Position numbers and translations under genes: made by a program
The notes under the pieces: generated by a model
The model's database searches: none
What the model was told of the DNA's origin: nothing
The model's input: only the letters and a program-made list of their open reading frames with translations
From: an uncultured Ignavibacteriaceae bacterium
GTDB lineage: Bacteria; Bacteroidota; Ignavibacteria; Ignavibacteriales; Ignavibacteriaceae
Reading direction: 5' to 3'
DNA: 64,000 bases
Assembly: GCA_964625575.1 (NCBI GenBank)
Contig: CAZVBQ010000017.1
Span: 7,628 to 71,627 of the forward strand
Shown here: piece by piece, positions 45,205 through 46,486 of the stretch
Layout of the letters: every line of letters starts with the position of its first letter
How positions within the stretch are numbered: the stretch's first letter is position 1

Positions 45205-46486
45205 AGGTCACCATCCAGTCTTTTTCGATCAATCCGTTGAGTATGGCAAGTTCGATCACCCTCTCGGCACGTTTAACCACGGGAGGATCGATCATCTTGC
45301 TGCCGAGCGAAACGGCAGCGAGTCCCTTTGCTTTGGCATCTTCGAACGCCAAAACGATCTTCTTCGCTTTCTCAATTTCAGCGGAAGTGGGGGCGAATGC
45401 TGTATGTATCGGCTGGATCTGACGGGGGTGTATGCAACCCTTCCCTTCGAAACCGTATGATTTCGACTCAAGGGTCGATTTAACCAATCCATCCATATCA
45501 CCCACATCGGAGAAGACGGAGTCGATAGCCTGCACGCCGGCTGCCTTGGAGGCGTTAACCACCTGCATCCGTGCCCAGAAGCTCTCGGTTCCTTCAAGTG
45601 TTCTTTCCGCGCCGATGTCTGCTGTATAATCTTCCAGACCGATCGCCAATGAACAAACGAACTTCGATGCCGACGCGATCGCGAACGCGTTGATCGCGCC
45701 CTTGGCACTCTCGATGATCGGCATGAACCAGATGTCATCTTCGATTCCATGCTTTGCTTTCAGTGCCAGCACTTCCTTTTCAACTGCTATTATCTGATCC
45801 GCTTCCTCAACTTTCGGGATGAGGATAAGATTCACCTTGTGTGGTACGACGAACTTGAGGTCTTCCAACCCCATGGGGAGCTGGTTTATCCTCACCATCC
45901 GCTCCGCGCCGTAGAAGTTCACGCTTCTTAAAGCATTTCTGACCAGGTGACGGGCGGCGTCCTTTTCGTCGGGGGAAACGCTGTCTTCCAGATCGAGGAT
46001 CACTCCATCAGGTCCATGAAGACCGGCATTAACGAAGAACTTCGGTTCATTTCCGGGGAGGTAAAGCCTGCTTCTGCGGAGGCGGTTCTTCGGTGTCTGG
46101 GGGATGTTCGCATTAAGGAACGGCATCAGATATTCATCAGTTACAGCAGGGTTCATTCTCTTAACGGCGGCTTCAAACCGGGCGGCGATCACAAATGGGA
46201 GCGCTCCCGCGTCCTCAATCGTGATGGTCACACCTTCAAGCTTGAAGTGAGCGGCGAGCTCCTCCAGCTGTTTCTTTATCGCCTCACCATACAGCGAACC
46301 AACCTTCGATTTTATCAGTAGTGAGTTTTCAGTAGTGAGTAGTGAGGAATTCTCACCACTCGCCACTCGCTTCTCGCTACTGATTTCAATCCAGCAATCC
46401 GATCTTATGGCGGTGCCTCTTTTACCGGCACTTCCTTTTAGCAGCAGATGGTCCTCGCCACTCGCTACTCGTGACTCGCTACTCAT
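45191..46486 (-). CDS. Fusion of citrate lyase acyl-carrier (gamma, CitD) and beta subunit (CitE, citryl-CoA lyase)
   Basis: Residues ~20-115, AGKRGTAIRSDCWIEI...IKSKVGSLYGEAIKKQLEELAAHFKLEGVTITIEDAGALPFVIAARFEAAVKR, align with CitD (AGTLESGDVMIRI...INSSVEKQFGDAI...DDKGALDCILRARLE). The rest, RRSRLYLPGNEPKFF...VILDLEDSV, is a CitE/HpcH-type lyase. Start at ATG 46486 (1 nt after the prpD-like stop) or TTG 46495. Confidence 0.8.
   Translation of the reverse strand: MSSESRVASGEDHLLLKGSAGKRGTAIRSDCWIEISSEKRVASGENSSLLTTENSLLIKSKVGSLYGEAIKKQLEELAAHFKLEGVTITIEDAGALPFVIAARFEAAVKRMNPAVTDEYLMPFLNANIPQTPKNRLRRSRLYLPGNEPKFFVNAGLHGPDGVILDLEDSVSPDEKDAARHLVRNALRSVNFYGAERMVRINQLPMGLEDLKFVVPHKVNLILIPKVEEADQIIAVEKEVLALKAKHGIEDDIWFMPIIESAKGAINAFAIASASKFVCSLAIGLEDYTADIGAERTLEGTESFWARMQVVNASKAAGVQAIDSVFSDVGDMDGLVKSTLESKSYGFEGKGCIHPRQIQPIHTAFAPTSAEIEKAKKIVLAFEDAKAKGLAAVSLGSKMIDPPVVKRAERVIELAILNGLIEKDWMVTYGND
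46316..46382. repeat. Imperfect palindrome of AGTAGTGAG-type words centred on GAATTC, lying in-frame inside citD
   Basis: CAGTAGTGAGTTTTCAGTAGTGAGTAGTGAGG-AATTC-TCACCACTCGCCACTCGCTTCTCGCTACTG uses the same word family as 2013-2037 and 56331-56361. It encodes SSEKRVASGENSSLLTTENS. Confidence 0.6.

Follow-up and report, generated by a model that had tools for sequence, protein, structure and literature searches.

In-frame copies of a dispersed heptamer-word repeat in the acyl-carrier domain of a CitD–CitE fusion from an uncultured Ignavibacteriaceae bacterium

The citDE locus

The 64,000-nucleotide stretch of DNA analyzed here, which we call the window, spans positions 7,628 to 71,627 of contig CAZVBQ010000017.1 (assembly GCA_964625575.1) from an uncultured Ignavibacteriaceae bacterium. 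On its minus strand it carries citDE, a gene that fuses a CitD-like acyl carrier protein (ACP) domain to a CitE-type lyase of the citrate-lyase system. Two segments of the ACP-coding part consist of words of a short repeat that is dispersed through the genome. One directly follows the start codon, and the other folds back on an inverted copy of itself in a loop close to the conserved serine. The evidence points to near-neutral passengers rather than to an adaptation of CitD. The features at the locus, in window coordinates, are as follows.

45191-46486, minus strand: citDE fusion gene, 431 amino acids, ACP (CitD-like) plus CitE-type HpcH/HpaI lyase (Pfam)
46484-46486, minus strand: ATG that starts citDE, separated by 1 nt from the TGA of the PrpD-like gene upstream (TGA T ATG)
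46452-46483, minus strand: N-terminal module AGTAGC GAGTCAC GAGTAGC GAGTGGC GAGGA, a canonical copy of the dispersed GAGTRGY family
46400-46402, minus strand: codon for Ser29 in the RSDC motif, the presumed prosthetic-group attachment site, invariant in homologues
46352-46384, minus strand: left arm of the loop hairpin, ATC followed by the sense words AGTAGC GAGAAGC GAGTGGC GAGTGGT GAG, encoding ISSEKRVASGE
46347-46351, minus strand: hairpin apex AATTC, inside GAATTC
46314-46346, minus strand: right arm of the loop hairpin, antisense words CTCACTA CTCACTA CTGAAAA CTCACTA CTGAT, encoding SSLLTTENSLL
46488-46490, minus strand: TGA stop codon of the PrpD-like gene, read from the sequence
46488-47855, minus strand: PrpD/MmgE-family gene, upstream of citDE (Pfam)
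43648-45204, minus strand: citF, downstream of citDE with a 14-nt overlap

A canonical module directly follows the start codon

A first-pass annotation, made from the sequence alone, had described the start of citDE as repeat-derived and in frame. This description holds, and the segment is free of stops. The 16-mer AGTAGCGAGTGGCGAG occurs exactly both at 46454-46469 on the minus strand and at 2014-2029 on the plus strand. From 46486 to 46451 the minus strand reads ATG AGT AGC GAG TCA CGA GTA GCG AGT GGC GAG GAC, which translates as MSSESRVASGED. The module itself, with the peptide SSESRVASGE(D), adds a net 11 codons relative to close relatives that start MEKIIKG. The same annotation had the repeat supply the only plausible ATG. 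That ATG is indeed the only canonical start that keeps the AGKRG..RSDC sequence, the next in-frame ATG, GTG or TTG being a GTG at codon 41, beyond Ser29; the repeat does not supply it. The repeat unit proper begins at AGTAGC (46483), right behind the ATG, which corrects the limits given earlier.

In the module-free close relatives L003 and L093, the ATG lies 1–2 nt behind the PrpD-like stop, as it also does in the ~80%-identical loci L007, L008 and L009, which carry a different array of AGTCACRG or AGTCACA words. The stop/ATG junctions of these relatives read TAAAATG, TAACAATG and TAGATATG, with longer reads TAAAATGGAA, TAACAATGGAA and TAGATATGGAG. The module is absent from proteins P0003, P0005, P0125, P0127 and P0131, all of which begin MEKII.., and ATG, frame and module length are all kept in L001, L005 and L006. 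Because module-free relatives have an ATG in the same place, and because the canonical module starts after it, the citDE ATG appears most simply to be ancestral, with the module directly 3′ of it. Differences between these two junction alleles extend to the last PrpD-like codons and to the four codons after the module; the alleles therefore look like old recombining haplotypes, not a fresh clean insertion.

Other candidate starts were rejected. One, a TTG at 46495, falls within the end of the PrpD-like gene; others, the CTG codons that follow the module, lack conservation (CCG CTC GTA in L005); and the GTG at codon 41 would remove Ser29. Separately, in two relatives (L001:2930-3000 and L005:2204-2253) the ATG and module are tandemly duplicated upstream of citDE. 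The duplicated segment measures about 50 nt in L005 and 62 nt in L001, where it includes a small GC hairpin; the upstream copy is out of frame and leaves a 50–62-nt spacer. In both loci a GGAGGA Shine-Dalgarno-like motif lies 10 nt before the ATG that is used.

A repeat hairpin occupies the β1–β2 loop

The second segment is, as had been proposed, an imperfect palindrome around GAATTC, with arms of 33 nt each that are 73% complementary and a 5-nt apex. Its limits are 46314-46384 (71 nt) rather than the 46316-46382 first noted. The hairpin encodes ..ISSEKRVASGENSSLLTTENSLLIK.. in frame and without stops, and its left-arm module reads in full AGTAGC GAGAAGC GAGTGGC GAGTGGT GAGAA. As RNA, the 71-nt hairpin has a folding energy of −37.7 kcal/mol, and the 201-nt region around it gives a folding z-score of −6.3. 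Between 45900 and 46900 we found no terminator-like site (the hairpin has no T-run behind it) and one promoter-like site, at chance level. The only Rfam match was to mir-627, far below threshold (18.7 bits vs 86; E = 0.42), and was taken as chance.

Profile alignment and AlphaFold2 (AF2) models both place the hairpin in the β1–β2 loop of the ACP domain, in keeping with the short loop suspected from the sequence. The loop starts six residues after Ser29, and both inserts flank the serine-bearing strand. Predicted tryptic peptides covering the inserts are VASGEDHLLLK and VASGENSSLLTTENSLLIK.

The inserts interrupt an otherwise conserved ACP domain

The interval from SDC to SKV is exactly 17 residues long in 144 of 167 CitDE fusions and 28 residues long in the window protein. 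The possibility that the segments are conserved CitD residues is thereby set aside: they are insertions. The 23 longer intervals fall into seven lengths (+3, +10, +11, +12, +16, +24 and +28), and all belong either to L013, which is an Ignavibacteriaceae genome, or to the homologue set dominated by Ignavibacteria. No enlarged loop was present at the 79 other genome loci (L014-L092), which include all non-Ignavibacteria matches. The R28, S29, D30 and C31 residues are invariant in 38 of 38 fused homologues. Ser29 is probably equivalent to Ser14 of enterobacterial CitD; the conserved serine of CitD carries the 2′-(5″-phosphoribosyl)-3′-dephospho-CoA group.

Profile matches reflect the interruption. 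The ACP part scores 49.4 bits against Pfam PF06857 (cut-off 25.1) and the lyase part 169 bits against PF03328. In the insert-free protein P0023, the ACP match is unbroken (residues 27-97 = profile 12-82), whereas in the window protein it starts only after the insert (residues 53-111 = profile 25-83) and is restricted to this part of the profile because of it. Scores against the NCBIfam models for citD (TIGR01608, 33.4 bits vs 63.5) and citE (TIGR01588, 279 bits vs 443) lie under the equivalog cut-offs, a trait of the whole fused family and not of the window copy alone; in the homologue set, whose names place the organism among the Ignavibacteria, the CitD–CitE fusion is the usual form in Ignavibacteria and several other phyla. 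The adjacent citF product exceeds its equivalog cut-off (TIGR01584, 509.4 bits vs 501.45).

Structure prediction for proteins with and without the inserts, one of the checks proposed at first pass, gives the same ACP topology for the window protein (strands 16-20, 31-37, 55-60 and 86-92; helices 63-80 and 97-111) and for P0023 (strands 15-18, 29-35, 42-47 and 73-79; helices 50-67 and 84-98). The β1–β2 connection is modeled as a six-residue turn in P0023 and as 17 residues in the window protein. Within the window ACP domain, the predicted local distance difference test (pLDDT) score falls below 50 only at residues 1-13 and 40-51, and the core scores 78-92. The outermost repeat-encoded residues are modeled as strand extensions, SS after β1 and SLL, as part of β2, before IKS. 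In these models, the inserts are disordered and the ACP fold and conserved serine motif are intact. In a fold search with the whole model, the CitE half resembled malyl-CoA lyase, CLYBL and CitE structures; only this half was matched, and the search returned nothing on the ACP loop. A sequence search of the PDB with the ACP part gave chance-level matches only (E about 0.4).

The citD segments belong to a dispersed repeat family

We searched the 3.67-Mb genome (53 contigs) for arrays of this kind. Tandem arrays of period 7 strongly predominate: there are 461, compared to 31 with period 6 and 11 with period 9, and they comprise about 30 word families. Within the window, AGTAGCGAGTGGCGAG with three or fewer mismatches has 14 matches compared with 0.15 expected, a count reached in none of 100 shuffles. 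The citD family is a fixed module of ~32 nt, xGTAGY-(GAGTRGY)x3-GAGGA, rather than a free-length microsatellite. A strict pattern (xGTAGY, three GAGNNNY words and GAGR) finds 46 modules in the genome, in which 121 of 138 inner words are canonical GAGT[AG]G[CT]. Both citD copies are among the 46, the N-terminal one at 21383 and the left arm of the loop at 21485 on the minus strand of contig C17. Some copies of the module are single, some adjoin CGTTGCC arrays and some fold back on an inverted partner. Copies elsewhere in the window are listed here.

2014-2036, plus strand: intergenic copy of the GAGTRGY word family (word search)
2090-2119, plus strand: intergenic canonical module GGTAGC GAGTGAC GAGTGGC GAGTAGC GAGGA (module pattern)
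56338-56360, plus strand: further copy of the GAGTRGY family (word search and module pattern)

In-frame repeat insertion is not special to citD. Arrays lie in frame between Pfam domains of the E2 acyltransferase of a 2-oxoacid dehydrogenase (C7:63892), of UvrA (C9:83666) and of a GT4 glycosyltransferase (C43:1618), as well as inside the long GcpE match of IspG (C15:83652) and in a GlcF-like CCG protein (C4:61156). The peptide SSExRVASGE is found again in the UvrA and GT4 glycosyltransferase of the same genome.

A separate observation concerns GCGTTACGCGTTGCCCGTTGCC, which lies exactly 61 codons before the stop in about a dozen large open reading frames of 356-1123 amino acids (for example, C2:9341, C2:109062, C2:405781, C2:409273, C5:92378, C19:57912 and C26:31451). 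It may mark the conserved boundary of a C-terminal domain, or be a linker of CGTTGCC words ahead of a shared C-terminal domain.

The inserts turn over among near-identical genes

Both insertion sites are polymorphic in the set of proteins that share at least about 88% identity with that of the window. There are three N-terminal alleles: the module, the module plus a small GC hairpin (..RSAFGGA..) and no module. The loop has at least six alleles, namely type A, type A with a GC hairpin in the left, right or both arms, type B and type C. Type B keeps outer stems ATCAGTAG..CTTACTGAT (window, CTACTGAT) and has a CGTTGCC array and ATCACTS words inside. N-terminal and loop alleles occur in mixed combinations. 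The GC hairpin, TCCGCC-NNN-GGCGGA, is 15 nt long and is inserted after ..GCGA within GAGTRGY modules (L001:2945-2960, L093:3087-3101; proteins P0123, P0125, P0126, P0127 and P0128). It occurs upstream of citDE, in L001, as well as in frame within the inserts of citD; there it encodes SAFGG(G/A) or PPKAD according to the arm.

The same loop has also received other sequences in other Ignavibacteria. AAGAACG-type words are found in L009 and GGCAACG-type words in L011, and the L010 loop has a clean 30-nt insert, CAGCCAGAGGCTGATCAGCCTAAGGCTGAG, a pair of CAGCC..GGCTG mini-hairpins with flanks nearly identical to those of insert-free L012. No target-site duplication was recognizable at the citD sites or at this clean L010/L012 insertion. 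By the criteria for miniature inverted-repeat transposable elements, the citD element is itself a palindrome, and we found neither a duplication nor a transposase link. Independent assemblies (JGI, Logan, ENA and NCBI) show the same in-frame architecture, and the exact window protein is recorded from four sources.

The inserts evolve as DNA rather than as protein

Comparing the window, L001 and L005 separates 33 repeat-derived codons from 373 other codons of the gene. Differences affect 18-21% of the third positions in repeat-derived codons and 12-17% of the other two, compared with 34-45% and 3-5% for the rest (Fisher P = 0.01-0.08 for third positions; 1e-3 to 2e-5 for first and second). The ratio of nonsynonymous to synonymous differences (pN/pS) is 0.47-0.91 for the loop hairpin and 0.28-0.78 for the N-terminal module, compared with 0.08-0.13 for the rest of the ACP domain and 0.05-0.07 for CitE. 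Near-equal rates at the codon positions and high pN/pS indicate that the insert peptides are nearly unconstrained. Meanwhile, module nucleotides are somewhat better kept than nearby synonymous sites, and the folding energies of the orthologous hairpins are −34.6 to −37.7 kcal/mol, compared with −21 to −23.5 (s.d. 5-6) after equal random changes.

The reading frame does leave a mark. A run of GAGTAGC words brings TAG into each reading frame in turn, and no translated copy has a canonical word where TAG would be in frame. In the N-terminal copies, this register has TCA in the window, TTG in L001, AAG in L005 and TTA in L006; AAG is also the triplet of the loop copy. With C as its last letter, this word leads into CGA (CCA in the loop copy of L001), never into TGA. 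Genome-wide, 24 of the 46 modules are closed in all three sense frames; antisense frames are almost always open.

The hairpin interior appears to have been rearranged in the window's lineage. Its central 39 nt match L001 with three mismatches as the reverse complement but with 12 directly, whereas comparison with L005 gives eight mismatches either way and no preference. All other type-A alleles have the L001-like order SSE..SSPL. As the simplest reading of these alignments, the interior would have been inverted, or the arms exchanged, in the lineage of the window; interior inversion would fit template switching within a quasi-palindrome.

Arrays of the same kind flank PF05635 genes

All ten PF05635 genes that we found in the genome sit at the apex of a hairpin with inverted arrays of 7–8-nt words, and each has its own word family.

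C18:51568-51930, within a cassette at C18:51513-51970: PF05635 gene with GAGTRGY-family words, as in citD
C2:109360, C2:271702, C5:109273, C7:56478, C9:42583, C12:26513, C15:86262 and C19:50739: other PF05635 cassettes
C17:75070: PF05635 cassette 3.4 kb past the right end of the window

The C18 gene is flanked by GGGTAGCGAGTAGCGAGTGGCGAGTAGTGAGGA and CTCGCCACTCACCACTCACTACTCACTACC, a module and its inverted copy. As these arms are of the citD word family, the citD hairpin has the architecture of this cassette minus the gene. The citD apex, GAATTC, holds no gene, placing the hairpin outside the PF05635 cassettes proper; it is at most a gene-less derivative of one. L094, a metagenomic relative with 87% identity, has the same words. 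Among the metagenomic relatives examined, arrays of period 6-8 occur on at least one flank in 32 of 48 cases and on both flanks in 17 of 48. We rejected a strict protein-to-word specificity. Mean identity is 82% within a word family vs 48%, but there are clear exceptions: L137 and L138 are 90-93% identical to GAAGGCT-flanked proteins yet have ACCTCCA arrays, and two ACGAGCC-flanked PF05635 proteins are just 40% identical.

Other repeats in the operon

The aconitase-family neighbor gene contains perfect period-7 arrays, GAAGGGT (4.3 copies) and CTGAAGG (2.9 copies), at 48613-48677 on the minus strand. They lie in frame between the Aconitase and Aconitase_C domains and encode ..PQADHPSPFTLHPSSP... 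The operon spacers at 47874-48026 and 50605-50761 have period-9 arrays of CCGCAAAGG and its complement TCCTTTGCG as inverted pairs. In relative L010 (2772-4275), citF is called as three pieces (82, 249 and 209+ amino acids), which may reflect a frameshifted or interrupted gene or an assembly error.

Discussion

We propose, with a probability of roughly 0.78, that both segments derive, in frame, from a non-autonomous repeat dispersed in this Ignavibacteria lineage and are selfish DNA that CitD tolerates but does not require. One module lies directly 3′ of the presumably ancestral ATG, at the junction of the PrpD-like stop and the citDE start, and a module with its inverted copy forms the hairpin in the β1–β2 loop. 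Transcription and translation through both inserts would then yield an 11-residue N-terminal extension and a loop longer by 11 residues. Selection may do little more than keep the frame open, by removing stops and frameshifts, with the inserts otherwise evolving as DNA. The words and the complementarity of the arms could be kept by copying, through either template switching in the quasi-palindrome or conversion from other copies. Both sites may have been occupied simply because they are permissive, and an existing hairpin could attract further elements. For citrate-lyase biology, the inserts are probably neutral.

Several observations weigh against this proposal, and some of them suit a different one, in which the hairpin, perhaps together with the 5′ module, is selected as an element acting in cis at the RNA or DNA level and the peptide is a by-product. 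Such an element could block mRNA decay, make ribosomes pause once the ACP serine has emerged or provide a site for protein binding. Although the hairpin is 71 nt long, it adds just 33 nt, implying that about ten ancestral loop codons were replaced and that simple insertion is insufficient. No terminal inverted repeat, target-site duplication or transposase was identified for the element. Translation through the inserts is judged from open frames and conservation, and the rate comparisons rest on 33 codons and three sequence pairs only. Third codon positions are more conserved in the modules than elsewhere in the gene, and the folding energy of the orthologous hairpins is conserved beyond random expectation (P = 0.005-0.03); selection on a nucleic-acid function would produce both signatures. 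The z-score of the surrounding region and similar arrays between genes of the same operon, such as that at 47874-48026, also fit a cis-acting role. Concerted copying of a selfish repeat, however, predicts the same signatures, and close relatives have very different hairpin interiors (types B and C), GC-hairpin insertions or no N-terminal module at all. In addition, 144 of 167 homologues manage without the insert, and the search of 45900-46900 for terminator-like sites and that of Rfam for a known family gave no support. On balance, we regard a selected cis-acting element as unlikely.

An adaptive role for the peptides is less probable still. Flexible extensions could help the fused ACP to reach the active sites of CitF and CitE or could assist complex assembly, and both the position of the inserts around the serine-bearing strand, with the loop beginning six residues past Ser29, and the enlargement of the same loop in several lineages would suit such a role. 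Yet pN/pS is near 1 with no codon-position signature, length and sequence vary freely among near-identical proteins, some alleles lack the N-terminal module and most of the family is short-looped; the same peptides moreover recur in unrelated enzymes, and the inserts are modeled with pLDDT below 50. It is highly improbable that the architecture is an artifact of repeats misassembled into the gene, or that citDE is a pseudogene with a decaying ACP domain. Short repeats are hard to assemble and the NCBIfam citD and citE scores fall under their equivalog cut-offs, but independent assemblies from several sources agree on the in-frame architecture, the frame is intact, conserved motifs are invariant and purifying selection on the remainder of the gene is strong. 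The low NCBIfam scores hold for the whole fused family.

Beyond the proposal of tolerated repeat copies, the C18 cassette suggests a bolder and more doubtful possibility, which we advance tentatively. The citD segments could be gene-less derivatives of undescribed transposase-less elements whose full form is a PF05635 gene at the apex of a hairpin with arms of about four 7-nt words. Arrays would be written at gene ends and into existing hairpins by an active copy-or-overwrite process that the PF05635 protein may assist and that may be coupled to template switching. If true, this would explain why the peptide drifts while the words and the complementarity of the arms persist, why the interior of the citD hairpin looks inverted relative to L001, and why one loop has been rebuilt repeatedly and alleles differ in near-identical genes.

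There are several broader implications. An ACP domain of roughly 90 residues tolerates repeat DNA only a few residues from its conserved serine, and such loops can be rebuilt repeatedly over short evolutionary times, which bears on how protein loops evolve. For annotation, the inserts are relevant because they truncate Pfam and NCBIfam matches. The allelic series in near-identical genes is a natural experiment on the movement and maintenance of heptamer-word repeats, and the PF05635 gene between arms of the same family is a concrete candidate partner gene.

Comparison with known systems

The closest parallels for translated palindromes are the Rickettsia palindromic elements (RPEs), which are described as ~150 bp long (100-150) and as encoding a conserved peptide specific to each family (Ogata et al. 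2000, 2002, in the relevant passages of PMC10969869). Like the citD segments, RPEs are small palindromes of one genome-wide family found in frame in unrelated housekeeping genes, and the account in the same passages is of an extra peptide that is translated and thought to be compatible with the fold (PMC10969869). The citD hairpin and the in-frame copies in the E2, UvrA, IspG, GT4 and GlcF-like genes behave in this way. In contrast, the elements here have a ~32-nt unit of four 7-nt words, a 71-nt hairpin and a peptide that is not conserved, and the citD elements turn over among near-identical relatives; nor are RPEs made of tandem heptamers. By size and by the unconstrained peptide (pN/pS 0.5-0.9), the citD element thus falls outside the RPEs as these are described.

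Short tandemly repeated repetitive (STRR) sequences of cyanobacteria are heptanucleotide repeats, and the period of 7 nt that is strongly preferred here is shared with such repeats. Heptanucleotide long simple-sequence repeats have been discussed in other bacteria (Mrazek et al. 2007, in the part of PMC4679880 that treats them). The Gmet_H4 elements of Geobacter metallireducens consist of four tandem heptanucleotides in dozens of copies within and between genes, and the Geobacter elements have been proposed to be regulatory, in the sections of PMC2700814 concerned with them. The citD family shares with Gmet_H4 a dispersed four-heptamer unit in dozens of genic and intergenic copies but differs in its words (GAGTRGY here, GGACCGG there). 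The sections of these sources on Gmet_H4 and heptanucleotide repeats mention neither folded-back copies nor an analysis of translation in frame, nor any connection with a gene cassette.

PF05635 is the family of 23S rRNA intervening-sequence (IVS) proteins, known from the IVS of Coxiella and Leptospira in the passages of PMC4990558 on the subject, and its members resemble the four-helix bundle Avd according to the corresponding part of PMC10053308. The PF05635 cassettes of the present genome resemble the citD hairpin in having word arrays in inverted orientation as arms, which in the C18 copy are a module of the same word family and its inverted copy. The rRNA IVS differ in being inserted in rRNA helices and not in protein-coding loops. 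In the parts of the literature cited here that treat these systems, we found no description of an in-frame allelic series, of DNA-like evolution of the inserts, of an apparent arm inversion or of a PF05635 cassette of the same family. Finally, the domain that carries the repeats has the ACP fold elements and serine-bearing strand of enterobacterial CitD and MdcC-type ACPs, and matches PF06857 as they do; it differs from them in being fused to CitE, as throughout the Ignavibacteria and Bacteroidota-type family, and in being interrupted by a repeat at profile position 24/25.

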